A stretch of DNA of 14,869 nt, taken from positions 1-14,869 of the forward strand of contig JAKSQG010000027.1 of NCBI GenBank assembly GCA_024404275.1. Direction: 5' to 3'. Source of the DNA: Clostridia bacterium. Its GTDB lineage: Bacteria; Bacillota; Clostridia; Christensenellales; Aristaeellaceae. Within the stretch, counting starts at the first letter, position 1. Each line of letters opens with the position of its first letter. Positions 2,791 to 14,869 of this stretch are shown in pieces. The notes beneath the pieces were generated by a model. It was not told the DNA's origin, ran no database searches, and saw only the letters and a list, made by a program, of their open reading frames with translations. A program made the position numbers and the translations under genes.

Positions 2791-3096
2791 ATGGAAGTAC
2801 AGGGAAAAGCAATGGACAATGCAGCTGCGATCGAAAGAATCAAGGCAATGGAACAACGGTTTGACAGTGCGTTGAAAGCAGCGGCGGAGCTGGATGAAGC
2901 GATTGAACGGTTCAAAGATTCTGCAAAAGACGTGGAAGCGTTGATTGCTTATTATGAATCCGATGCGTGGCGCAACGATTTTGAGGCGGACGCGGAAGGA
3001 AGATTTCCGGCCAACCTGAAACGCGGCGTTTTGTCAGAGGATGGTATTTATAACCTGCTGACGGATTATCAAAGACTGAAGGAAATACTCGTCTGA
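2791..3096 (+). CDS. DUF4298-family small protein
   Basis: It has the YYES..W..DFE.D..G..P..LKRGVLSEDG.YNLL signature that I recognise from DUF4298 proteins. I chose the ATG at 2791, just after the upstream TGA; the ATG at 2812 is an alternative start. The stop is TGA. Confidence 0.75.
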   Translation: MEVQGKAMDNAAAIERIKAMEQRFDSALKAAAELDEAIERFKDSAKDVEALIAYYESDAWRNDFEADAEGRFPANLKRGVLSEDGIYNLLTDYQRLKEILV

Positions 3097-3129: not shown

Positions 3130-3612
3130 GTGGAACTGTGGGATGCTTATGATGGGGATTTTAACAAGATTGAGAACATGACGCTGGTCCGAGGTGAAAG
3201 CATACCCAAAGGGGTTTTTCATTTGGTATGTGACGTGATCGTGAAGCATAGTGATGGAACCTTCCTGCTGATGCAGCGGGACTTTCGTAAGCATTATGGA
3301 GGCCTGTGGGAAGCAACCGCCGGCGGTTCGGCTTTGCAGGGAGAAGATGCCGAGACCTGTGCAAGAAGAGAACTGCGGGAAGAAACGGGCATCGCGGCGG
3401 AACATCTGGCTGAAGTGGGGCGTGTGTGGAAAGACCAGACGATCTATACAGAGTTTTTGTGTGTGACAAGCTGTGCGAAAGACAGTGTGACGCTGCAGGA
3501 AGGGGAAACCGTTGCCTATCGTTGGGTGAGCCGCGATGAATTGATTGAGATGAAAGAGGATGAACTGGTAACACAAAGGATGCAGACCTTTATTGAAGAG
3601 CTGCAGCGGTAA
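3130..3612 (+). CDS. NUDIX hydrolase
   Basis: Nudix box GGSALQGEDAETCARRELREETGI (Gx5Ex7REUxEExGU). It starts at GTG, preceded by GAAAGGGGG. The stop is TAA. Confidence 0.9.
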   Translation: MELWDAYDGDFNKIENMTLVRGESIPKGVFHLVCDVIVKHSDGTFLLMQRDFRKHYGGLWEATAGGSALQGEDAETCARRELREETGIAAEHLAEVGRVWKDQTIYTEFLCVTSCAKDSVTLQEGETVAYRWVSRDELIEMKEDELVTQRMQTFIEELQR

Positions 3613-3632
3613 ACGGACTGCGAAGGAGAAAA

Positions 3633-3896
3633 ATGAGCACGAGATCACATTTTATGTGCAGCCTGATCCATAACGGTGTGCTTGGCGGTGGGTTGACGCC
3701 GGATGAGAAGGGCGTTACCTTCAGAACCGGCAAGGTGACCGTTGACGCATAATACAGAAACCTCGTCATCGACAGGGGCGAAATCCGTTCACTCACGTGG
3801 AAAGGCGTGATGGCGGTGTTTGCCATGAAGAACAGGGAAGAATACCGCTTTTTGATTGTCAATAAGCGGCGGTATGTGAGAAATTACGAAGGATAA
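3633..3896 (+). pseudogene. Small PH/GRAM-like domain protein interrupted by an in-frame TAA at 3750-3752
   Basis: A GAAGGAG RBS sits at 3622-3628 and the ATG at 3633. The frame reads MSTRSHFMCSLIHNGVLGGGLTPDEKGVTFRTGKVTVDA*YRNLVIDRGEIRSLTWKGVMAVFAMKNREEYRFLIVNKRRYVRNYEG and ends in TAA at 3894-3896. Both halves are in the same frame and each is under 60 aa, so neither appears in the ORF track. The bacterial PH-like assignment comes from remembered sequence patterns only. Confidence 0.45.
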
Positions 3897-3915
3897 ACAG
3901 AAGACAATCATTTTG

Positions 3916-3950
3916 AAGATGAAGTGCGATGCATTTCATCTTTTTGTTTG
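3916..3950 (+). terminator. Rho-independent terminator after the uvrB-to-PH-like gene string
   Basis: Stem AAGATGAA (3916-3923) pairs with TTCATCTT (3935-3942) and is followed by TTTGTTTG. Confidence 0.6.
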
Positions 3951-3956
3951 ATAAGC

Positions 3957-3976
3957 ATTTAGAAAAATATCTAAAT
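3957..3976. promoter_or_regulatory. Palindromic operator copy 1 (ATTTAG-N8-CTAAAT)
   Basis: ATTTAG at 3957-3962 and CTAAAT at 3971-3976 form a perfect inverted repeat with an 8-nt spacer, just upstream of the -35 element. Confidence 0.55.
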
Positions 3977-3981
3977 ACCTA

Positions 3982-4010
3982 TTGACAGAGATCAAGCATT
4001 GATATATAAT
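3982..4010 (+). promoter_or_regulatory. Sigma-A type promoter for sdpR/sdpI
   Basis: Consensus -35 TTGACA (3982-3987), a 17-nt spacer and consensus -10 TATAAT (4005-4010), about 50 nt upstream of the sdpR ATG. Confidence 0.7.
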
Positions 4011-4030
4011 ATTTAGGCAGTCATCTAAAT
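4011..4030. promoter_or_regulatory. Palindromic operator copy 2 (ATTTAG-N8-CTAAAT)
   Basis: ATTTAG at 4011-4016 and CTAAAT at 4025-4030, with the same half-sites and spacing as copy 1. It lies immediately downstream of the -10 element, 54 bp from copy 1. Confidence 0.55.
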
Positions 4031-4061
4031 AGTTGACTGATGAAACGAAAGGAGATGTACG

Positions 4062-4337
4062 ATGAGCTTCAATGAAACGATGAAGGCTCTGGCAGATCCT
4101 ACAAGACGGGCGATATTGAATATGCTCAAGGAAGGCAGCTTGCCTGCCGGAGAGATCGCCGAAAAGTTCGATATGACCGGAGCAACGATCTCCCATCATC
4201 TGTCCACGCTGAAGAAGGCGGGGCTGGTGAATGAGGAGAGGAAAAGGAACTTTATCTTCTACACGTTGAATGCTTCCGTTCTGGAAGAGATTCTGTTGTG
4301 GATCAGCGAACTGAAAGGAGAGGAAAACAATGATTAA
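4062..4337 (+). CDS. sdpR: ArsR-family winged-helix repressor, SdpR-like autorepressor
   Basis: 91 aa. FKALADPTRRAILNMLKEGSLPAGEIAEKFDMTGATISHHLSTLKKAGLV closely resembles B. subtilis SdpR (YvbA) as I recall it. A GGAG-containing RBS lies upstream. The TAA stop overlaps the start of the next gene. Confidence 0.85.
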   Translation: MSFNETMKALADPTRRAILNMLKEGSLPAGEIAEKFDMTGATISHHLSTLKKAGLVNEERKRNFIFYTLNASVLEEILLWISELKGEENND

Positions 4338-4983
4338 GATGAACAGAGAAGAAAAAAAGGAATTGGTACTGACCACGCTGGTGTGCCTGATTCCGCTGAT
4401 CGCCGGGCTTTTGCTGTATTCGAAACTGCCGGAGGAGATGGCGATCCATTGGGATGCGCAGGGCAATGTGAACGGAACCAGCAGCAAGCTGGTGGGGACG
4501 ATTGTGCTTCCTGGCATTCTGGCGCTGCTCAACCTGATCTTCCCGATGCTGCTGCGTATCGACCCGAAATATGAAAACATGAATGGCAAGCTGAAGACAC
4601 TGACCCACTGGATCATTCCTGTGACCGCGGTTTTCTGCTCCGGAGTCACGCTTGCGGCAGCGCTTGGCGTGAAGACGCATATAGAAGTAATCGCTCCGAT
4701 GCTGGTGGGTGTACTGTTGGTTCTAATCGGCAATTATCTTCCCAAGACAAAACAGAGCTACACCATGGGCATCAAACTGCCCTGGACGCTGAACAGTGAG
4801 GAAAACTGGAATCATACCCATCGTATGGCGGGTTTCCTGTAGGTCATCGGCGGTATGGTGATGATCGTCAGTGGATTCTTTTCCTTCCGCTATATCGCTT
4901 TCATTGCGATTATGGTTGTGATGGTTGCAGTGCCTACTGTGTACTCCTATCTGTATTATAAAAAAGAGAATCATGCGAAATAA
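4330..4983 (+). CDS. sdpI: SdpI-family membrane protein (DUF1648 plus SdpI domain) with an in-frame TAG at 4840-4842; a pseudogene under standard code 11
   Basis: An AAAGGAGAGG RBS sits at 4314-4323. It has an N-terminal DUF1648-like LPEEMAIHWDAQGNVNG and the SdpI core YLPKTKQSYTMGIKLPWTLNSEENWNHTHRMAGFL. After the TAG the same frame continues as a hydrophobic helix, VIGGMVMIVSGFFSFRYIAFIAIMVVMVAVPTVYSYLYYKKENHAK, to the TAA at 4981-4983. The ORF track shows only 4330-4842. Confidence 0.8.
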
Positions 4984-4998
4984 CAACTGAAACACATG

Positions 4999-5040
4999 AA
5001 AAAAAGGATCCGCGGAAGGAAATCTCCGCGGGTCCTTTTG
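4999..5040. terminator. Bidirectional rho-independent terminator between convergent sdpI and the ydcF-like gene
   Basis: Stem AGGATCCGCGGA (5005-5016) pairs with TCCGCGGGTCCT (5025-5036) with one G-U pair. An A-run lies upstream and a T-run downstream. Confidence 0.65.
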
Positions 5041-5045
5041 CAATA

Positions 5046-5654
5046 TCAGTAAGGGAGAAGACCGGCTTTCTGGCACCAGTATTTGACCCAGGCAAGCGCT
5101 TCACGGCAGTGGTTTTTGAGCCAGTACTGGGGGAGCGTGGCACTGCCGGCGCCCTGTGCGTCAAAGCCGGCATCGGCTGCAAGCGCAAGGGCACGGGCGA
5201 CATGGTAATCGCTGGTTACAATCAGCACCGAGGTGGTGCCTTCCGGCAGCATCGCCTTGGCGTTGTCGAGGTTTTCCCGGGTATTGACGGAGGTGTCCTC
5301 CATCAGGATATCCTGCGCCGGGACGCCGAGCGACAGCAGATAGGTCTTCATGGCCTGCGCTTCGGTGATGGGTTCGTTGTACCCACGGGCGCCGCATACA
5401 ACAATGGGACGGGGACGGAGGCAGTAGTGCTGATAGGCCATGTCGAGACGGTCCTTCAGCTGACGGCTTAATGTGCCGTCTTCTTTTACCTGCGCGCCGA
5501 GCACGATGATGGCACTGTCGTTATCGTCAGGGGTTGGGATGGTCCATTCCCGGATGGCGACATAGCCGACAAGGGCGAAAAAAACGACAGCAGCCAGGAT
5601 GAGCAGCAACAAAAGGGTGTGTATCAAAGGGTGTTTCCTTTCTCTTTTGGACAT
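5046..5654 (-). CDS. YdcF/DUF218-family membrane-anchored protein (SanA/ElyC-like)
   Basis: 202 aa with an N-terminal TM helix, then IIVLGAQV..DG..S..L..RLD, VCGARG..E..EA..M..YL...GV and VTSDYH..RA motifs typical of DUF218. An AAGGAG RBS is present. The stop is TGA. Confidence 0.85.
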   Translation of the reverse strand: MSKRERKHPLIHTLLLLLILAAVVFFALVGYVAIREWTIPTPDDNDSAIIVLGAQVKEDGTLSRQLKDRLDMAYQHYCLRPRPIVVCGARGYNEPITEAQAMKTYLLSLGVPAQDILMEDTSVNTRENLDNAKAMLPEGTTSVLIVTSDYHVARALALAADAGFDAQGAGSATLPQYWLKNHCREALAWVKYWCQKAGLLPY

Positions 5655-5669
5655 TGGGGCTGTGCTCCT

Positions 5670-6401
5670 TCAGTAATGATAAAGAATGGTGTTTTGCCCG
5701 GCAGTCAACGGGGAGGCGTTCCCGCTTGCATCGGGCATGAGGCCGCTGAGCAGAAAACTGAAGCTCTCGTTTTCGGCTGAGATAATGTGGTCAAACAATG
5801 TGATGCCGATGCGGCGCAGTGTTTCGTGCAATTCCAGCGTCAGCGAAACATCGGCTTCGGAGGGGGCGGCGCTGCCGCCGGGGTGATTGTGGGCGAGGAT
5901 CAACCCGCAGGCGCCGCTTTGTGTGGCGACGCTGACGATGTGCCGTGTATATACGCGTACCTATGTGGTATCGCCCGAACCGATTTGGGCTGCGCTGAGG
6001 CGTTTCATGCGCGCATCCAGACAAATGACATAGAATTTTTCGTATTTTTCCCCTTCAAACAGGGCTTCGCAGTAGCGGGCGGCGGCGGTGGGAGAAGAGA
6101 GGATCGGCGAATCCTCCTATACGCTTTTGCGGTAGGCACGGAAGAGCGGCAGCATCAGCGCAATCAGGGAGGCGGCATTGTCCCCGATGCCATCGATGGT
6201 TTGCAATTCGTCGGGCGTGGCCTGCAGTACAGCGTGGAGCGAGCCGAACCGTTGGAGCAGCGCATGGGCGATGGGATTGGTATCCCGCCGCGGGATGGCA
6301 AAGGAGAGCAGGAACTACAGCACTTCGTGCGGTGCAAACGCTTCAAGACCGGCGGTTTCAAAACGCGTCCTGAGACGCTTGCGGTGTCCTTCGTGCTGCA
6401 T
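5670..6401 (-). CDS. radC: RadC-family protein (HhH plus JAB/MPN domain) with three in-frame TAG codons; a pseudogene under code 11
   Basis: The minus-strand frame starts at the ATG at 6399-6401, with a GGAGG RBS. It reads MQHEGHRKRLRTRFETAGLEAFAPHEVL*FLLSFAIPRRDTNPIAHALLQRFGSLHAVLQATPDELQTIDGIGDNAASLIALMLPLFRAYRKSV*EDSPILSSPTAAARYCEALFEGEKYEKFYVICLDARMKRLSAAQIGSGDTT*VRVYTRHIVSVATQSGACGLILAHNHPGGSAAPSEADVSLT...DHII. The TAGs appear as CTA on + at 6315-6317, 6117-6119 and 5961-5963. The stop is TGA at 5670-5672. Confidence 0.85.
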
Positions 6402-6429
6402 ACCGGAGCCTCCTTTCGCTGATGTGTCT

Positions 6430-6458
6430 ATCATATCACACTTTATCCGATGACTCAA
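6430..6458 (-). promoter_or_regulatory. Putative radC promoter
   Basis: On the minus strand: TTGAGT (-35, 6453-6458 on +), a 17-nt spacer and TG-n-TATGAT (extended -10, hexamer at 6430-6435 on +). Confidence 0.45.
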
Positions 6459-6469
6459 CAGATTTGCGG

Positions 6470-6498
6470 TTGTTGAAACAATTCGGATATGGTAAAAT
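6470..6498 (+). promoter_or_regulatory. Putative addB promoter with extended -10
   Basis: TGgTAAAAT, with the hexamer at 6493-6498, and a weak -35 TTGTTG at 6470-6475 after a 17-nt spacer. Confidence 0.35.
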
Positions 6499-6520
6499 AA
6501 AAACACAAGGGGGCAGAATA

Positions 6521-9500
6521 ATGGTTTCGATTTATGGCGGGCGTCCCAACAGATTGTGGCCGCATCTGGTGCGGCTCATTCGTTCGGCACGTTCTGAAAA
6601 CAAAAAATGCGTGTTGATTGTGCCCGGAGATTTCACACTGCAGGCGGAGAGGGCTTTGATCCGCGATCTGGACTGCAAGGGCTTTTTTGATATAGAAGTA
6701 TATTCGCTTACCCGATTGACAGGGCAGATTTTGTCGTCCAGACCCCTCTTTGGCCGGAAAGCGATTGATGAAAACGGCAAAAACGTAGCAGTGGCCAGGG
6801 CTGTGCTGGAGCGGAAAAAGGAATTGCGTTATTTTGCCCGTATGTCGGAAAGCACGGGCTTTGTCCAGCGCTGCGGCAGCTGGATTGCCGATATGAAACT
6901 TGCTCAGATCGGTCCCGCGCAGCTGAAAAAATATGTGGATCAAATGCAGGAGGGTGCTGAGAAGGAAAAACTGAGCGATCTGAACGGCATTTTTGAAACT
7001 TATACGGCAATCCTGAGCGATAAGTTTGTGGATAATGAGGATATCCTGACGGCGTCGATTGAAGCATTGCCTGTCAGCGGCATCTTGAATGACACCGAAA
7101 CGATACTTTATGGATTTGACCGGCTGAATGAGGATTATATCCGGTTTTTATGTGCTGCAGCGCCGTTGGCGTCGCATGTGGCAGTCTATCTTGCGATGGA
7201 CCGTGAAGACGCTCCCGACGGTGATTGCTTTGAAACGGTCCGCCAAAGTGCTGAAAACCTGCGGCTGCGTCTGCGCAATCAACATCAGCAGCGGGAATGG
7301 CTCTGGATCGATGAAGAAGCAGACGACAACAGTCCCGTGGAACTCAAATGGCTGCGGGCGCATCTGCTGCAGCCCGGAGTAAAACCGTGGTCTGAGCAAT
7401 GTGACGCGGTGACTCTTTTTCAGGCTTCGGTGCCTTATGTGGAGGCACAGTACCTGACCGAAAGTGTATTTGCCCTTCTGGAAAAAGGGGTGAATCCAGA
7501 AAAAATCGTGATTCTGTGCGGACATCTGGATATCATGGAGCCGCTGCTTTCCGCTCTGTTTGCTGCCTGTGGCATACCGGCCTATTTTGATGTACAGGCG
7601 CCGCTGATTCGGCATGGATTGGCGCGGATGCTGCTGGCAGCCTGCCGTGCGGTCAACGATGGTTATCGCCCGGAGGACATGCTGGAGCTGATCAAATCGG
7701 GATACGCTCCGCTGAGGAGTCCGGAGGGTTGGGCTCTTGAAAACTATATACTGAAGAATGGCGTAACCGGGGCAAAATGGAAGACATCCTTTGACACGGA
7801 TGGCACGGATGGGGAGGTCGAAGCGGCCCGGGTCAAACTGATGGACATGCTGGAAATGCTGAAGGATGAGCTGAAAAACGCACGCACAGGTGCGGAATCC
7901 CTGACGGCTCTTGTCCATCTGATGACGAACGCGCAGGTACCGGACAGGCTGGCGGAAGTACAGGAACAGTTGACAAACGCCGGACTGGGAACGGCGGCAG
8001 TGCAGAACCGTCAGGTATGGGAAACCATCACCGGCGTACTGGAGCAGATGAACGAAATTGCCGGAGAGGAACGCATTCCCGCGGGTGTGATCACCACGTG
8101 GTTGGAAGCGGGACTGATGGGAGCAAAGCTGTCAGCACTGCCGCCTGTTTCCGGCTGTGTCACAGTGGGAGATATCGGTCGGATGATCCCCTTTGAGCCG
8201 GAGCATGTTTTCCTTTGCGGCCTGAGCGATGAAGCGGGGGCAGACCGTATCAATCTGATGAGTGAAGAAACTGTCGAAGAGATGGCAGAAAGCATGCAGG
8301 TTACCATTGGGGAGAGCCTGAAGGATGCCGACAGCATGGATGAACTGACACGGTGGAAACTGGTCTATGCTGCAAAGAAGCACCTGTATCTTTCCTATCC
8401 GCAGGCGTCTCAGGATGGCGCAGCGGCTCGCTGTGACCGTTTTGTGCAGACAGTGACGCGTTTGCTTCCGCAGATGCAGAAGGACGGCAGCCTTGCGGAA
8501 TCACCGCTGCACGCGGTGTCACCCTTGATCGCGCTCGATGAAATCGGCGTCCGCCTGCGGGAGGGGGCACTGAAGGGAGAATGGCTGAAGGCGTGGAACT
8601 GGCTGCTGATGGACGAAAAATACCGGGCAATTGCCGAACAATTGCTGGTACACGCACAGGGACGGCAGAAAACGGAGCAGTTGAGCGAAGAACGTGCCGG
8701 AAAGCTTTTCCGGGATAAGAAGATGAGCATCAGCCGACTGGAGACCTTCGCAGGTTGCCCGTATCGGCATTTTGTGCAGTATGGCTTGAAACCCAAGGAA
8801 AGATAGATGTGGGGCTTTTCGCCCATTGACAAGGGCAACTTTTATCATGCTGCCATTGAGGGCTTTACCAAAACACTGGCAGAAGAACCGGCATGGCCGA
8901 AAATCACCCGCAAAACCTGTGACCGGTTGATGGAAAAAGCGTTGGAACCGCTCGTTGAACAGTGGCGCGGCGGCTTTCTGGAGGGCAGCGCACGCGCCAG
9001 AACGGAAGGAGAACGCTACATTCGTTTGTGCAAGCGGCTGGGGTGGGTGTTTACCCGCGGGGCACAGTATTCGAACTTTAAACTATGCGGAAGCGAGATA
9101 GACTTTGGTACAGAAGGCAGCCGTATGGAGGCGCTGACGCTTGGATTGACCGATGGCTCCAAGGTACTGCTGGAAGGACGCATCGACCGTGCGGAGGAGT
9201 ATGTGAATGAAGATAAAAGATATATCCGCGTGGTCGATTATAAGTCGGGTCATAAGGAACTGAAGCCTGAACAGATTCACATCGGCATGCAATTGCAACT
9301 TTTATTGTATCTGAAGGCGATGCTGAACGACGATCCATCAGCGGTGCCCGCCGGCGCCTTTTATCAATGGATGGGTGATCCGCTGGATAAACCCGACAGC
9401 GAGAAGGATGCGGATGTGCGGCTGGTGGAAGCCCTGAAGCTTAGAGGCGTTGTGTTGGCTGATCAAGAGACGATACGCGCCATGGATGACGAGGATAATC

Positions 9501-9817
9501 CTGCATCAATGGAAAAAATGCTCAAAAAGGACGGAGCAGCGTTTGCGAATAAGCTGGCACTTCGTCTTGAATAGATGGATACCCTGATCGGAAAGGCTTG
9601 CAAGACCGCCGCAAAGCTGACAGAAGAGCTTCGAAAAGGCGAAATTGCCGCTGCTCCTGTGCGGACGGACGACACACACTGTGTTTGTGATTATTGTGCC
9701 TATGATGGCATCTGCCGCCGGGATAAAAGTGACCGCAGCAGGGAAAGAAAGCTGAAAAAAATGAGCCCGGAAGCATTGCTTCAAGCAGAAGAAACGCCCG
9801 TGACAGATCCCTTCTGA
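6521..9817 (+). CDS. addB: Helicase-nuclease AddAB/RexAB subunit B (AddB) with two in-frame TAG codons; annotated under code 11 it would be three ORFs or a pseudogene
   Basis: An AAGGGGG RBS sits at 6507-6513 and the ATG at 6521. The total is 1098 codons, a typical AddB length. Segment 1 (6521-8806) ends ...SISRLETFAGCPYRHFVQYGLKPKER, which includes the first Fe-S cysteine. Segment 2 (8807-9574) carries the RecB-type nuclease motifs GRIDRAEE...IRVVDYKSG...GMQLQLLLY. Segment 3 (9575-9817) carries CVCDYCAYDGIC, the remaining Fe-S cysteines. The TAGs are at 8804-8806 and 9572-9574, all segments share one frame, and the final stop is TGA. Confidence 0.88.
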
Positions 9818-9838
9818 TCGACAGTCGATGGATAGATT

Positions 9839-9870
9839 AAAAAAAGAACGGCTATCATGCCGTTCTTTTT
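9839..9870. terminator. Bidirectional rho-independent terminator between convergent addB and cvpA
   Basis: AAAAAAGAACGGC-tatcat-GCCGTTCTTTTT: a perfect 9-bp GC-containing stem flanked by an A-run and a T-run. Confidence 0.75.
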
Positions 9871-9887
9871 GAATGAGCCGAAGTGCG

Positions 9888-10598
9888 TCAAACACCGTTG
9901 ACAATGAGATGGAATGCCGAGTTGCTGTAGAAAAAGGACATGAGACTGCTTTCGGAAAACAGCGCCGTTACCTGACGCACCGGAATGACGGTGAGAACAA
10001 TGGGCGTCAACTGACAGATGACAAAAACGACAACGGCTCCGCGCAGAAGCCCGAAGATGGCGGCAGTGATGCTTTCACCATGGCGCAGCAGCGGGAAATA
10101 GGTTGTATGACCGATGGCGTTGATGACGGTATGCAGCACCACAAAGCAGAGAAAGAAGCAAATCGTATAGGAAAGGGATTGGATGACCGCCATGACAACG
10201 GTGTGGGAAACATACTCGTTGACGGTGGAAAGACCGAACGGAGCGAGCGAAAGCGATTGCATGTTGGCCCGAAGCAGGGACTCGATGCCGATAGGGAGGC
10301 CGACACCCTTCATGACGCTTTCAAGCGCTGTGCCTGTCAGCCCGGCAGCTGGGGACATGGCCAGGGAATAGTCACCTACCAGTGATCCGGCATCGGTGTA
10401 GGTAACCAACAATTGCATAACGGCCTTGTTCCGGCTGAGCAGTTGAACCAACTGCGGGTAGAATAGTCCCGCCAGCAAAAGGCTGAGAAGGGAAACAAAG
10501 AATCCAAGCGCGGAGGATACCGACCCTCTGTATAGCGAAAAGATGACGCTGGCGACGAGGATCAGCAGTAAAAACAGATCAATGATGTTCATGGTCAT
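9888..10598 (-). CDS. cvpA: CvpA-family (colicin V production-like) integral membrane protein
   Basis: 236 aa with multiple TM helices. The N-terminus MNIIDLFLLLILVASVIFSLYRGSVSSALGF is typical of the CvpA family. Its ATG overlaps the upstream gene's TGA (ATGA at 10595-10600). Confidence 0.8.
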   Translation of the reverse strand: MTMNIIDLFLLLILVASVIFSLYRGSVSSALGFFVSLLSLLLAGLFYPQLVQLLSRNKAVMQLLVTYTDAGSLVGDYSLAMSPAAGLTGTALESVMKGVGLPIGIESLLRANMQSLSLAPFGLSTVNEYVSHTVVMAVIQSLSYTICFFLCFVVLHTVINAIGHTTYFPLLRHGESITAAIFGLLRGAVVVFVICQLTPIVLTVIPVRQVTALFSESSLMSFFYSNSAFHLIVNGV

Positions 10599-11704
10599 CA
10601 GGGAAGCACGACGGCATAGACAGAAGCACCGCTGGCCAACAGGGCACAGCCGTTGGAAGTGATTCCGAGGAAGGCGGTAACGTTGCCGTTGACGGGGATA
10701 TCCAGTCCGGTGAAACGGTTATCGCTGATATCGGCACGGTAAATACCGGAGGCGGAGAAAGCATAGACCTTGTTCTTGTACAAAGCGGCACCGACACATT
10801 CGGAAGGAAGCGTGTAGCGGGTGTCATTTGTACCCTTGAGCAGGCGCAGTTCGGTAAAGCCGCTGCCGTTCTCCACCTGCTGTACAGGCGTGAAGAGCAG
10901 GTAGGCGGAGGAGCCGTTTGTCAGGGAGCTGACGAGCTGCCAGCCGTAGACGGTGGCGGCACCGGCGGGATTTTCAGTGCCGTGGTAATCAAACTGGCGC
11001 AGCTCACGCGTATCGATGACATTGAGCGTGCTTCCGCAGTAGACAACGGAATAGGGCAGACGCTGGCCGAGGTTGGCAGAACCGGTGTTCATCTGTCCGG
11101 CACGGTAAGTGATGAGCGAGGATTGAGGAACAGTGCCGTAAACATCCAGCGAGGTGGTCCAAATGTAGGAACCATCCCCGAAGAAGCCGCAGTCCAACAG
11201 CATGACGTCTTCGTAGTTGTTGCTTTCTGTATCGATGACAGAACCGTTGACATCGATAATCGTCAGCGTGGGGCTGATGTTATCGCCGGTTACCACGGCG
11301 ACATACTTTTCGCCGGTACGGGCGAACTGAATGGTGTCGCCGAGCATGTTGTTGTAGGTGGCGTGACCGTTACGGTCGAGGATCTGCAGCTGACGGCCGC
11401 TCCAGACGGAAATGTAACGGGAACCGGCGTCGAACTGCGCGCCGTTGCCGATGGAAACGCTCCACACCTCCGCACCGGAGCTGGTCAGACAGAACAGTGT
11501 TCCATTGCTGTAATACAGCACACGATCACCGAAGACCGTCACATTCTGATTGACCTGACAGCGCAGGGAATAGGTTTTGATCTTGGAACTGCCCATGTAC
11601 TGGGAAACAAGATAGACCATCAGTACGATAAACACAGCGGCGAGAACAATGATCAGTGCCGCCATGGGTGTTCTTTTTTTCTGCTCGGAACGATAACGCG
11701 GCAT
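10598..11704 (-). CDS. Membrane-anchored repeat protein, probably beta-propeller-like; resembles the DUF5711 family
   Basis: 368 aa. It has a basic N-terminus and a single TM helix (MAALIIVLAAVFIVLMVYLV), followed by a Gly/Ser/Thr/Tyr-rich beta-type ectodomain. It is translationally coupled to cvpA and has an AGGAGG RBS. The family assignment is from memory. Confidence 0.6.
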   Translation of the reverse strand: MPRYRSEQKKRTPMAALIIVLAAVFIVLMVYLVSQYMGSSKIKTYSLRCQVNQNVTVFGDRVLYYSNGTLFCLTSSGAEVWSVSIGNGAQFDAGSRYISVWSGRQLQILDRNGHATYNNMLGDTIQFARTGEKYVAVVTGDNISPTLTIIDVNGSVIDTESNNYEDVMLLDCGFFGDGSYIWTTSLDVYGTVPQSSLITYRAGQMNTGSANLGQRLPYSVVYCGSTLNVIDTRELRQFDYHGTENPAGAATVYGWQLVSSLTNGSSAYLLFTPVQQVENGSGFTELRLLKGTNDTRYTLPSECVGAALYKNKVYAFSASGIYRADISDNRFTGLDIPVNGNVTAFLGITSNGCALLASGASVYAVVLP

Positions 11705-11730
11705 AAGTACCTCCTGAAATCGCTGAGGAT

Positions 11731-11760
11731 ATTATAATCGAAAGGGGCCGCACGCGTCAA
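11731..11760 (-). promoter_or_regulatory. Putative promoter for the DUF5711-like/cvpA pair
   Basis: On the minus strand: TTGACG (-35, 11755-11760 on +), an 18-nt spacer and TATAAT (-10, 11731-11736 on +), within the 72-nt gap after the SNF2 gene's stop. Confidence 0.55.
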
Positions 11761-11776
11761 CAATAAAGGAAGATCA

Positions 11777-14700
11777 TCAATCCTCGAACAGCCGGAGCAG
11801 GTCCTCATCCGAAAGTTTGGTGGGGATACTCTCGCCGGGGGTAATCAGCTTGTCGAACAGCTTGCGCTTGCTCTGACTCATGTTGACGACCTGTTCCTCA
11901 ATGGAATCGTGAACCAGCAAACGGATGACTTCCACCTCTTTGGTCTGGCCGATACGGTGAGCACGGTCGACGGCCTGTTCCTCGGCAGCGGGGTTCCACC
12001 ACGGGTCATAGTGAATGACCATATCGGCACCGGTCAGGTTCAATCCCGTGCCGCCGGCTTTGAGCGACAGCAGGAAGACATTGCCGTGGCCGCCGTTGAA
12101 GCTCTCACAAAGACGGACACGCTCGTCAGCAGGGGTTTCACCGTCCAGATAAAGGCAGCCGATGCCTTCCTGACTGAGACGCTGCTCGATGAGGCGCAGC
12201 ATGCGTGTGAACTGGGAAAAGACCAATGCACGGCGGCCGTTTTGCAGGGCGGGAATCAGAATATCCACAAGCATTTCCAGCTTGCCGGATGCGGCGGTGT
12301 AATCGTTCAGGCACAAAGCCGGATGGCAGCAGATCTGACGCAATTCGGTGATGGCACTGAGCACTTCGGCACGGCCTTTGGCCATGCCGCGGGTGGTAAG
12401 AATCTGACGCACATAATCGCGCCGGCGCAGCAGGCTGGCCGAATAGACCTTTCGCTGCTCGGCAGACATTTCGGCCATCATGATCCGCTCGAGTTTGTCG
12501 GGCAGCTCGGTCAGCACATCCTTCTTGAGGCGGCGCATCAGGAAAGGACGGATGCGCTGCATCAGTTCCTCGCTGTTTTCACCTTCGCCGTAACGGTGCA
12601 TGAAAGCGGAAACACGCGGCAGGTAACCGGGAAGAATAAAGTCAAAAATACTCCACAACTCACCCGCGTGGTTTTCCATGGGCGTACCGGTCAAAGCGAT
12701 GCGGGTTTCGGCTTTGATGGTCTTGACTGCGTGAGCCGCCACACTGGAGGCGTTCTTGATCTGCTGCGCCTCATCCAGCACGGCAAAACGGAAGGTCACC
12801 TCGGACAGAAGCGGTGCATCGCGGCGGATCAGCGGATAACTGGTCAGTACGATGTCGGGTGCTTTGGAGGAGGAAAGACGTTCGATCTGCTCGGCACGGG
12901 TCAGCTGACTGCCGCTGATGAGCATGACATCCAGCTCGGGAGCAAAGCGTTTGAACTCACTCAGCCAGTTGTAGGTCAGCGAAGTGGGGGAAACGATGAC
13001 AGAGGGTTTACGTTCCGGTTCGGTACGGATGTAGAACAGTAGGGCGGCGATGGTCTGAATGGTTTTGCCAAGGCCCATATCATCGGCCAGAATGCCGCCC
13101 ATGTGCAGGGAATGCAAGGCGCAGAGCCACTCGAAGCCGCGCTGCTGATAGGGGCGAAGGCAGGTAAGCGGCGATTTTACCTCGGCGACTTCCATGCGGG
13201 CGGCACGCTGTGCTTCCTCGTCCAGCGTGACAGGCAGGTGATGGGCACGGATGAGCGCTTCCATATAGGAAGCACGGTACATGCCCATTTCCTGCGTGCC
13301 GGTCAGCTCGTTCGATTCGCAGACGGCTTCTGCCAGTGGCTGCCAGTCGTCGGTATCTTCCAGTGAAATGAAGGAACCATCCTTGAAACGGAAATAGGAG
13401 GAACGGTCGCGAAGAGCACGCATGAGCGGCAGCAGTTCCTCAGTGATTTCGTCATCCTGCAGCAGATCGAGCTTCAATTGGCCGCCTGCACCGCGCAGCA
13501 TGCCGGTAAGGCGGGGCTTACGGGGGGTGAGTTTTTTGAAATCGTTGCTGAAAAATACCTCGGCATAGTGTGTCAGCTCGCCGTCGCCTTCGGAGACAAA
13601 ACGATAGATCTCATCATTGCCGCTCAGATAGACAAGACCGCCGGAAACACGGAAGCCGGCGTTGGCGAGCACTTCGGTCACTTCCTGCTCATGCTGCGCG
13701 TCACGCAGCAGCAGTGGAGAAACACTGTCGTTGGGGGCAGCGAAGGGATCGATCACGGTATCGCCGTAAACAAATTCCGTGCGGGCGGTGACACCGACGC
13801 CCTCACGATCTAGGTAGACCCGTGCACGGAAGGGTTCCCGGATCAGTTGGCATTCCAGCTGGGGAGCGAAGCGCAGATCACCGATGCGGCTCAGCCAGAG
13901 CACAAGCTGGCTCATGACACGCCCGGTGCGGGCGGGTTCGAACAGAAACTCCGTGACGCCGTTGATGCGGTCTTTGACACACAGGCCGGCGACAGCTCGC
14001 TGCGCTTCGGGGACGCGCGTGACATAACCATCGACCAGTGCGTAGGAGCAGTCGGCTGTCAAAGGGATGAAATCACTGTCAAAACCCGCTTCGATGCACA
14101 GATGATGGACACCCTGGCGCGCCCGGTCGGACAGCGTAAAGGTGAGCGGAAGAGGATCGGTCTTGACCCCTTGCTGCGCAATGGCGGTGGTGCCGACCTG
14201 CAGGCGATAATCCAACCGCTCCAGAAGTTCCCAGACACGGGCAGCGGTGGTCTGCGGCAGGGGCATCATGCGTGCATCCTGAATGCCGATGGAAATACCG
14301 GCAAAACGCAGCGTATCACAGTGGGAACGCAGAATTTGCAAAAGTTCTTTTTGCGGCGCGGGAAAACGCATCCAGTCGGCGAAAAAGGTAAAGCCTTTGC
14401 CGACCTGCAGGGAACGGTTGCCGTCGATGGTGTCCAGCAATTCGGGGATGGAGCGCACCACATACATACGGTCCTGACCGATGCGCAGTCCAATGCTGAA
14501 GGAAGAGGGGGTAATGCGAAGCTCAGGCTCAAGACGAATCAGGGTGGATTCGGGCAGCGCGTATTCCATCATAGAGAACAGGGTCTCGGAACGTTCCTTG
14601 GCCTGCAGTTCCTTGAGGGATTTGAGGGCTCCTGATTCTCCGGCAGAGAGCAAGGCGGCGAGAAGATGGCGGCAGCGGGGAGAGGCGTCGCAGCTGCATT

Positions 14701-14869
14701 CGCCGCTGCCATTGGCAAACAAGTGCACTTCATTGCGTACGCCAGCCACTGAGTAGGAAATATATTCGGGGCAGCGCTTGTTTTCAGTCACCGCACCGCG
14801 GCGGTAAAGCATTCTGCCTGCATCAAATTCTTCGTTTCCGAAGCGTTCCAGTAATCTGGTTACATCCAT
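11777..14869 (-). CDS. SNF2-family DEAD/H helicase with an N-terminal SWIM zinc finger; the start is at or beyond the window edge
   Basis: At least 1030 aa. SWIM CxC..CxH motif (GECSCDASPRCRHLLAALL), SNF2 motif I (GGILADDMGLGKTIQTIA), motif II DEAQ (VLDEAQQIKN) and helicase C motif VI (QAVDRAHRIGQTKEVEVIRL). An ATG falls exactly on the last 3 bases of the window, so the true start is uncertain. The stop is TGA. Confidence 0.9.
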   Translation of the reverse strand: MDVTRLLERFGNEEFDAGRMLYRRGAVTENKRCPEYISYSVAGVRNEVHLFANGSGECSCDASPRCRHLLAALLSAGESGALKSLKELQAKERSETLFSMMEYALPESTLIRLEPELRITPSSFSIGLRIGQDRMYVVRSIPELLDTIDGNRSLQVGKGFTFFADWMRFPAPQKELLQILRSHCDTLRFAGISIGIQDARMMPLPQTTAARVWELLERLDYRLQVGTTAIAQQGVKTDPLPLTFTLSDRARQGVHHLCIEAGFDSDFIPLTADCSYALVDGYVTRVPEAQRAVAGLCVKDRINGVTEFLFEPARTGRVMSQLVLWLSRIGDLRFAPQLECQLIREPFRARVYLDREGVGVTARTEFVYGDTVIDPFAAPNDSVSPLLLRDAQHEQEVTEVLANAGFRVSGGLVYLSGNDEIYRFVSEGDGELTHYAEVFFSNDFKKLTPRKPRLTGMLRGAGGQLKLDLLQDDEITEELLPLMRALRDRSSYFRFKDGSFISLEDTDDWQPLAEAVCESNELTGTQEMGMYRASYMEALIRAHHLPVTLDEEAQRAARMEVAEVKSPLTCLRPYQQRGFEWLCALHSLHMGGILADDMGLGKTIQTIAALLFYIRTEPERKPSVIVSPTSLTYNWLSEFKRFAPELDVMLISGSQLTRAEQIERLSSSKAPDIVLTSYPLIRRDAPLLSEVTFRFAVLDEAQQIKNASSVAAHAVKTIKAETRIALTGTPMENHAGELWSIFDFILPGYLPRVSAFMHRYGEGENSEELMQRIRPFLMRRLKKDVLTELPDKLERIMMAEMSAEQRKVYSASLLRRRDYVRQILTTRGMAKGRAEVLSAITELRQICCHPALCLNDYTAASGKLEMLVDILIPALQNGRRALVFSQFTRMLRLIEQRLSQEGIGCLYLDGETPADERVRLCESFNGGHGNVFLLSLKAGGTGLNLTGADMVIHYDPWWNPAAEEQAVDRAHRIGQTKEVEVIRLLVHDSIEEQVVNMSQSKRKLFDKLITPGESIPTKLSDEDLLRLFED

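Follow-up and report, generated by a model that had tools for sequence, protein, structure and literature searches.

In a few groups of bacteria, one of the stop codons is now read as an amino acid across the whole chromosome: UGA encodes tryptophan in the Mycoplasmatales and in some endosymbionts (translation table 4) and glycine in the Absconditabacteria/Gracilibacteria (table 25), and release factor 2 has been lost. Recoding of UAG is known only from phages, where it is read as glutamine, from pyrrolysine enzymes, and from eukaryotes. Here, we describe six in-frame TAG codons in three genes, sdpI, radC, and addB, that lie on a 14,869-nucleotide stretch of DNA from a "Clostridia bacterium" (contig JAKSQG010000027.1 of assembly GCA_024404275.1), which we call the window. 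From comparisons with related metagenomic sequences, we conclude that UAG is very likely a rare sense codon in this lineage of uncultured, gut-type Clostridia (GCA_024500545.1, the assembly of run SRR27361835, and GCA_045599485.1) and is read mainly as glutamate, with UAA and UGA as the terminators.

The lineage would resemble tables 4 and 25 in that a stop codon has turned to sense across the chromosome, in-frame stops lie in housekeeping genes, and the remaining stops terminate. It differs in that the codon is UAG (which involves release factor 1 [RF1]), the amino acid appears to be glutamate, there are no in-frame TGA codons, and the genome is neither AT-rich nor reduced (the G+C content of the window is about 55%). 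Gut phages that read TAG as glutamine (crAss-like, Lak, and other large phages) also use UAG as a sense codon in prokaryotic translation (in their case through a suppressor tRNA-CUA) and also belong to gut-type communities, but the recoding stays within phage genomes and their hosts keep the standard code, whereas the genes affected here (including radC, addB, ligA, and pcrA) are chromosomal with conserved synteny and glutamate seems to be inserted. UAG does encode glutamate in two eukaryotic codes (table 30 of peritrich ciliates and table 31 of Blastocrithidia), but these depend on eRF1 and UAA is reassigned as well, whereas our contigs are unmistakably from bacteria and often use TAA as an ordinary stop. 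Pyrrolysine decoding likewise turns UAG into an amino acid in prokaryotes; it needs pylTSBCD and, in bacteria, affects a few methyltransferase genes, whereas here TAG is interchangeable with GAG or GAA in many unrelated genes. Finally, engineered Escherichia coli (C321.deltaA and related strains), from which UAG stops were removed and RF1 was deleted, follows the same logic as the path that we propose below, except that it is man-made and the change described here would be natural.

According to the Codetta paper from 2021 (PMC8629427), every known change to a stop codon in bacteria involves UGA, which also holds for the changes named in the KACI screen and in the other papers that our searches returned. 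A 2024 preprint counts three codes in Bacteria (10.1101/2024.09.30.615893). The KACI screen of about 2.7 million assemblies (2026) reports known bacterial reassignments of CGG, CGA, AGG, and UGA as well as three new candidates, none of which is TAG (10.64898/2026.04.02.715157). TAG-to-Glu or TAG-to-Gln calls in metagenome-assembled genomes (MAGs) usually reflect contamination by protists (10.64898/2026.04.02.715157; PMC8629427). In our case, protist contamination was ruled out, since the contigs of all three assemblies are bacterial in gene content and synteny and TAA serves as a normal stop. Our search of the literature found no published reassignment of UAG in bacteria and no description of these assemblies, which are absent from the supplement of the KACI preprint. 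We found no prior report of TAG-to-Glu for any bacterial chromosome: the change is of the same type as the known stop codon reassignments, but it lacks the defining features of each.

The window's truncated sdpI product and its SNF2-family protein are identical to MCQ2453523.1 and MCQ2453530.1, respectively, from the MAG GCA_024500545.1 ("Clostridia bacterium"). We compared the window with two related genomes, which also have a second region in common. The first, S1, is the MAG GCA_045599485.1 ("SGB_3710"), whose contig JAZRWA010000097.1 was covered to position 39,253 of 59,239; its window region (locus L001) is 89.5% identical in DNA to positions 5027 to 14869 of the window. The second, S3, consists of two Logan contigs of run SRR27361835: one for the window region (L003, 93.9% DNA identity to the window) and one for the second region (L096, 87% identity to the corresponding locus of S1, L095). 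These parts of three genomes (the window MAG, S1, and S3) total about 90 kb and form our lineage sample. Extra sdpI fragments from other samples were taken from Logan and ENA. Pfam scans were run on translations with X at the TAG codons, homolog columns were taken from alignments of 25 to 60 homologs per gene, and ratios of nonsynonymous to synonymous divergence (dN/dS) are Nei-Gojobori estimates for the segments following each TAG.

The sequence-only reading had reported one in-frame TAG in sdpI, three in radC, and two in addB, and all six are in frame where it placed them. It was also right that the reading frame is intact across them and that family motifs follow: Pfam models span the sites with scores above the gathering threshold, and HNHPGG of RadC and VVDYKSG and CxxCx5C of AddB lie downstream. 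The radC gene (5670 to 6401, minus strand; UPF0758_N/HhH and RadC JAB domains) has 243 codons, ends in TGA, and contains TAG at codons 29 (6315 to 6317, CTA on the plus strand), 95 (6117 to 6119), and 147 (5961 to 5963). Its match to PF04002 (107 bits, 6e-31) places the JAB domain at residues 102 to 217, and the model runs over TAGs. The addB (rexB) gene (6521 to 9817, plus strand; ADDB_N and a PD-(D/E)XK nuclease with Fe-S cysteines) has 1098 codons, ends in TGA, and contains TAG at codons 762 (8804 to 8806) and 1018 (9572 to 9574). It matches PF21445 (142 bits) and PF12705 (121 bits); the PDDEXK_1 domain at residues 735 to 1066 spans TAG, and the Fe-S cysteines (C746, C1056, C1059, and C1065) are invariant among 60 homologs. 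The sdpI gene (4330 to 4983, plus strand; DUF1648 and SdpI) has 217 codons if read through the TAG at codon 171 (4840 to 4842), and it ends in TAA. The read-through product matches PF07853 (61 bits) and PF13630 (68 bits), and the matches extend across the TAG; NCBI annotates only a 170-amino-acid truncation (MCQ2453523.1).

Across the lineage sample, in-frame TAGs occur at 20 distinct sites, which are spread over 10 conserved genes: radC, addB, sdpI, the SNF2 helicase gene, pcrA, ligA, and the genes for an mrfA-like helicase, a DUF512 radical-SAM protein, a HIGH-nucleotidyltransferase, and a Cof-type HAD protein. Matches to Pfam and PDB extend over the TAG sites, and two of the genes, ligA and pcrA, are normally essential or core genes. 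Seven of the sites are TAG in every genome that covers them. Codons 29, 95, and 147 of radC and codon 1018 of addB are TAG in the window, S1, and S3, with flanking codons that differ synonymously, and in the second region both S1 and S3 have TAG in the gene for the DUF512 radical-SAM protein, at codon 615 of pcrA, and in motif V of the mrfA-like (YprA/MrfA-like) helicase. The TAG at sdpI codon 171 was found in the window, in S3, and in two further Logan strains. Downstream of the TAGs, dN/dS is 0.05 to 0.12 between the window and S1 (at a synonymous divergence [dS] of 0.36 to 0.67) and 0.02 to 0.12 between S1 and S3 in the second region (dS of 0.38 to 0.74), and these values match those of adjacent genes without TAG. 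Relative to S1, the window's radC has a dN/dS of 0.086 overall and 0.05 to 0.105 in the post-TAG segments, and addB has 0.069 before, 0.058 between, and 0.123 after the TAGs. Neutral divergence downstream and absence of the TAGs from close relatives are among the signs that, according to the sequence-only reading, would speak against translation. We saw neither: dN/dS stays at 0.02 to 0.12, and most of the TAGs are kept in two independently assembled relatives.

The number of TAGs varies among comparable samples of the three genomes: the window has 6 TAGs (4,716 codons), S1 about 9 (about 11,800 codons), and S3 about 16 (about 10,500 codons). Because these numbers differ by strain and several gains are lineage specific, we read the counts as a sign that UAG is still spreading. 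The overall frequency is about 0.8 to 1.5 per 1000 codons, and in the window, TAG corresponds to about 1.7% of glutamate codons. TAGs concentrate in genes for DNA repair and replication (3 in radC, up to 4 in addB across strains, 3 in the mrfA-like gene, 2 in pcrA, and 1 each in ligA and the SNF2 gene), and there is no TAG in uvrB, engA, plsY, hprK, the transporter genes, an aminoacyl-tRNA synthetase gene, or a glycogen phosphorylase gene.

TAG does not seem to terminate genes in this lineage. Of the 13 gene ends counted in the sequence-only reading (5 TAA and 8 TGA), we retain 12 that belong to supported genes (4 TAA and 8 TGA), and as it had stated, none is TAG. None of the 12 window genes contains an in-frame TAA or TGA in any of the three genomes compared. 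None of the 34 distinct genes in the lineage sample ends in TAG. We reached sister lineages through SNF2 homologs: three (L005, L007, and L011) have SNF2 proteins with 69 to 72% identity, and L013 is more distant (54%). TAG stops are missing from L005 (0 of 16 genes), L007 (0 of 14), and L011 (0 of 20), or 0 of 50 together, and from L013 (0 of 18), for a total of 0 of 68. For the sisters, we counted database gene calls, because the few sister open reading frames (ORFs) that ended in TAG according to our crude longest-ORF caller were all antisense shadows of Pfam-supported genes. By that crude caller, TAG ends 125 of 676 ORFs (18.5%) in an outgroup of about 80 more distant metagenome loci, a baseline that is somewhat inflated because the caller takes in antisense ORFs. 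TAG is also missing as a sense codon in the sisters: there are no in-frame TAGs in 25,118 codons of L005, L007, L011, and L013, against 104 occurrences of TAG outside the reading frame. To all appearances, the wider clade lacks TAG, as though UAG had no assignment there. In a neighbor-joining tree of SNF2, the recoded lineage lies within a clade with L005, L007, and L011; the three genomes with TAG as a sense codon form one tight clade, and their nearest sisters (SNF2 identity of 69 to 72%) have no in-frame TAG. The loss of TAG as a stop seems to predate its return as a sense codon. Overall, TAG is almost certainly translated in this lineage: the proposal that it is translated in housekeeping genes of a Firmicute, also made in the sequence-only reading, is upheld by three genomes, conserved sites, low dN/dS downstream, and the lack of TAG stops.

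To infer which amino acid is inserted, we considered sister strains and homologs. Judged by GAG or GAA in a sister strain or by a glutamate homolog column, 15 of the 19 informative sites indicate glutamate; of the others, 2 indicate glutamine, 1 serine or alanine, and 1 tryptophan. At eight strain-specific sites, a sister strain has GAG or GAA in place of TAG: addB codon 762 (TAG in the window, GAA in S3, and GAG in S1), addB codon 432 (GAG in the window at 7814 to 7816, plus strand, and TAG in S3), SNF2 codon 114 (GAG in the window at 14528 to 14530, minus strand, GAA in S1, and TAG in S3), sdpI codon 8 (GAA in the window at 4351 to 4353, plus strand, and TAG in S3, from a three-way codon comparison), codon 91 of the nucleotidyltransferase gene (NTase-91), pcrA codon 664, ligA codon 643, and codon 101 of the HAD gene. 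Homolog columns also favor glutamate: it is found in 49 of 49 homologs at radC codon 29, in 28 of 49 at codon 95 (with A in 9 and L in 5), in 45 of 49 at codon 147 (with Q in 3), and in 18 of 25 at SNF2 codon 114, and it has a plurality at addB codon 1018 (26 of 60, with Q in 14 and D in 8). In solved structures, glutamate occupies the motif V site of the mrfA-like helicase ("STNALELGVDIG" of YprA/MrfA, 6znp, and Lhr), the PcrA sites ("EMEEERRLAYVG," also given as "EMEEERRL," and "HLLE"), and the radical-SAM site ("HTTNPELR" in 9cg1). The sequence-only reading had expected Glu at the first radC site and an aromatic residue in sdpI, and both hold (49 of 49 Glu and 43 of 44 Trp). At the first addB site, where it had expected a Lys/Gln-like residue, distant homologs have K in 18, R in 17, and E in 9 of 60, but GAA and GAG stand there in the two nearest genomes.

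The sequence-only reading had also suggested aligning the TAGs to homolog columns to obtain the decoded residue. A Codetta-style log-likelihood over ten aligned sites favors glutamate (+11.6 nats), and the runner-up is glutamine (-6.7 nats). Random nonsense mutation does not account for this preference: of the sense codons in the window that are one step from TAG, only 20% are GAG, and under that model the binomial P value for 9 glutamates among the first 11 informative sites is 2e-5. In these comparisons, TAG behaves as a synonym of GAG and GAA, and we are quite confident that it is read mainly as glutamate, with no role in termination.

Several observations weigh against this interpretation, beginning with the inflated outgroup baseline given above. 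The TAG-stop count rests on parts of three genomes, and genes elsewhere in these genomes could still end in TAG. The next clade out (clade B) is mixed: the SNF2 gene of L015 ends in TAG at the normal C terminus, and L013 has no TAG stops among 18 genes. Because L013 and L015 differ, the TAG-free clade is not well bounded. Some sites do not point to glutamate: the TAGs at mrfA codons 156 and 831 are CAG (Gln) in the sister strain, addB codon 109 is TAG in S3 and TCG (Ser; 6845 to 6847, plus strand) in the window or GCG in S1, and sdpI codon 171 aligns with Trp, not Glu. At this last site, a relative in ENA (P0365, from the same 90%-identity cluster and seen only as protein) has W as well ("GFLWVIGG"). 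The bias toward genes for repair and replication is compatible with a rare codon whose tRNA is scarce, but it also leaves room for some residual inefficiency at UAG. The machinery is missing from the sequences covered: tRNA searches found no tRNA with a CUA, UUA, or UCA anticodon in the window or in any of the 96 loci, and a tblastn search with the conserved GGQ region found no release factor gene in the 90 kb of lineage sequence (the one match was in an unrelated outgroup locus). Both parts of the decoding machinery, the tRNA-CUA and the loss of RF1, are thus entirely inferred, and the one indirect support for the loss of RF1 is the lack of TAG stops in the lineage and its sisters.

Some of the exceptional sites may have ordinary explanations. 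The CAG partners and the Ser/Ala partner lie at variable positions (at addB codon 109, the most frequent residue is A, in 32 of 59), where ordinary missense change could account for them. GAR (GAG or GAA) partners outnumber the others 8:4, as expected from purifying selection if TAG and GAG are synonymous. Glutamate at sdpI codon 171 would place W-to-E in the membrane segment "GFLWVIGG" of a nonessential, immunity-type protein; such a change may be tolerable, or it may reflect decay of sdpI, which has too few substitutions for the two to be told apart.

We also considered other explanations for the in-frame TAGs. UAG might be only partly a stop, with RF1 present and leaky suppression, by a natural suppressor tRNA or by near-cognate tRNAs, yielding a mixture of truncated and full-length proteins. 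The sequence-only reading had preferred ambiguous suppression or recent nonsense mutations over a clean reassignment, and the tendency of TAGs to lie in DNA repair genes, which are presumably expressed at low levels, rather than in uvrB, engA, plsY, etc., is in keeping with leakiness, as are the non-Glu neighbors at four sites (including the conserved Trp). That preference does not survive the wider comparison, which has glutamate at 15 of 19 sites and TAGs that are old (shared across a dS of about 0.5). The lack of TAG stops in 34 lineage genes and 50 sister genes is hard to square with a normal RF1, near-cognate reading would not select glutamate positions at most of the sites, and up to four TAGs in addB across strains and three each in radC and mrfA would multiply the losses to truncation, so we consider leaky suppression unlikely. 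A reading as glutamine, or as a mix of Glu and Gln, would require a suppressor derived from tRNA-Gln(CUG) that is charged with Glu by a nondiscriminating glutamyl-tRNA synthetase (GluRS) and then amidated by GatCAB. To our knowledge, every prokaryote-associated recoding of TAG (that is, in phages) is to glutamine. This is how PMC10879173 describes TAG recoding in phages, and CAG partners at two strain-specific TAGs, the second place of Q at addB codon 1018 (14 of 60) and its presence at radC codon 147 (3 of 49), and the location of tRNA-Gln(CUG) next to tRNA-Glu(CUC) in this lineage all lend it some weight. Yet glutamine falls about 18 nats below glutamate in likelihood, and GAG or GAA partners outnumber CAG by 8 to 2, even though mutation usually favors C-to-T transitions over G-to-T transversions. 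TAG also sits where homologs have invariant glutamate (49 of 49 in radC, helicase motif V, and "EEERRL" of PcrA). All told, we view decoding as glutamine as improbable.

Pseudogenes, recent nonsense mutations, or errors in sequencing or assembly are very improbable. The TAG at sdpI codon 171 does look like a classic TGG-to-TAG transition, with Trp kept in a close relative, and NCBI and other gene callers list the TAG-containing genes as truncated fragments. But four or more independent samples yielded assemblies with the same TAGs, dN/dS downstream is 0.02 to 0.12 at a dS of about 0.5 with no accompanying TAA, TGA, or frameshift, ten conserved genes (including ligA and pcrA) are affected, and random nonsense mutation would not produce an excess of glutamate positions. 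For practical purposes, the conserved TAGs and the low dN/dS exclude this class of explanations. Pyrrolysine, or another nonstandard residue encoded by UAG across the genome, was considered as well: some Clostridia carry pyl genes, and we know of no other natural UAG-encoded amino acid in bacteria. One preprint puts forward that in some archaea all TAGs are read as pyrrolysine (10.1101/2024.09.30.615893). However, a bulky lysine derivative is implausible at codons that swap with GAG or GAA between strains or sit at invariant glutamates, the residues aligned with TAG are Glu rather than Lys-like, and the lineage sequence that we covered contains no methylamine methyltransferase or pyl genes, which leaves pyrrolysine with hardly any credibility. 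It is just as hard to believe that the TAGs are genuine stops within split genes whose pieces reinitiate by stop-start coupling. ATG does directly follow both TAGs of addB in the window, but relatives have GAG-CTG and GAA at codon 762, not TAG-ATG; the TAGs of radC and sdpI precede TTC, GAG, GTA, and GTC, which are not start codons; and the cuts would fall inside single folded domains (JAB, the Fe-S nuclease, and helicase motifs V and VI). Other known codes were rejected: UGA as sense (tables 4 and 25) does not fit the absence of in-frame TGA or the 8 of 12 window genes that end in TGA, and a phage code similar to code 15 does not fit the chromosomal gene content (uvrB, addB, ligA, pcrA, engA, and plsY) or the strong disfavor for Q. 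TadA is known to edit the motif TACG. Editing of A to I, which would turn UAG into UIG at the Trp site of sdpI, was considered improbable on this account, as the context there is TAGG.

We think it likely that this is the first natural bacterial chromosomal code with UAG reassigned, to glutamate, and that it represents an early stage of codon capture: UAG was purged from all reading frames in the wider clade of gut-type Clostridia, where RF1 was probably lost, and one sublineage regained UAG through a tRNA-CUA, with spread by GAG-to-TAG drift. In the proposed route, TAG stops would have been purged first, from the wider clade, which would make RF1 dispensable or weak. A tRNA with the anticodon CUA and charged with glutamate would then have arisen in the lineage, after which GAG-to-TAG changes would be neutral, and TAG could spread, mostly in weakly expressed genes for repair and replication. 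Many Firmicutes lack glutaminyl-tRNA synthetase and use a nondiscriminating GluRS, for which position 36 may be C or G; GatCAB picks out tRNA-Gln by its U1-A72 pair and D-loop, not by the anticodon. The likeliest source of a tRNA-CUA would be a duplicate of tRNA-Glu(CUC), in which a change of C36 to A would be enough, provided that the GluRS charging it is permissive at that position. Because GatCAB ignores the anticodon, a CUA suppressor with the body of tRNA-Glu would deliver glutamate.

A tRNA search found no tRNA gene in the window, and Rfam found only two tRNAs: tRNA-Gln(CUG) and tRNA-Glu(CUC). These form a tandem, 3 nucleotides apart, upstream of pcrA in the second region (7442 to 7594 in L095 and 7443 to 7595 in L096), with a promoter-like region before them. 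An amber suppressor could arise from either one by a single change in the anticodon. As read from the sequence, tRNA-Glu(CUC) appears to carry a G1-U72 wobble pair.

If UAG is indeed reassigned in this way, then RF1 would be naturally dispensable, and the lineage would be a natural parallel to engineered E. coli without RF1. Together with its TAG-free sisters, it would offer a living series for testing the codon capture model step by step, and it would provide a natural glutamate-accepting amber suppressor pair for synthetic biology. For phages and mobile elements, the recoding probably helps to determine which of them can express their genes in these hosts. It also matters for annotation: gene callers that use table 11 fragment addB, radC, pcrA, and mrfA, and annotation with that table breaks up a share of the proteins, which distorts both the pseudogene counts and the estimated completeness of these MAGs. 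In S3, for example, the SNF2 gene was called as two pieces of 113 and 896 amino acids.

Both addB TAGs in the window directly precede ATG ("ATAGATG"; 8804 to 8809 and 9572 to 9577), and gene callers emit neat "split genes" there. The juxtaposition is probably a coincidence, as relatives have GAG-CTG or GAA at the first site. Homologs support the addB start at 6521 (MVSIYGG); another in-frame ATG lies upstream at 6422. There is no addA next to addB: radC lies on one side in divergent orientation and a cvpA-like gene on the other in convergent orientation, a layout that both relatives share.

The SNF2-family helicase gene (11777 to 14869, minus strand; 1030 codons) has Pfam support, contains no TAG in the window, and ends in TGA; its product is MCQ2453530.1. 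In S1, this TGA (11777 to 11779) is TGC (loci L001 and L004), which adds one Cys ahead of the next stop (1031 versus 1030 amino acids). The other window genes are uvrB and genes for a D-2-hydroxyacid dehydrogenase, a DUF4298 protein, a NUDIX hydrolase, an ArsR regulator, and DUF218, CvpA-like, and DUF5711 proteins; a search for exact copies of the DUF218 protein gave no match. The TGA stop of the DUF4298 gene (3094 to 3096) is likewise TGC in S3, where this gene and the NUDIX gene (3130 to 3612) are called as a fused protein of 266 amino acids (13323 to 14123 of L003). The NUDIX gene is separated from the arsR-sdpI pair by an intergenic stretch of about 450 nucleotides (3613 to 4061) that is lower in G+C (about 47%) and has no match in Rfam and no supported ORF.

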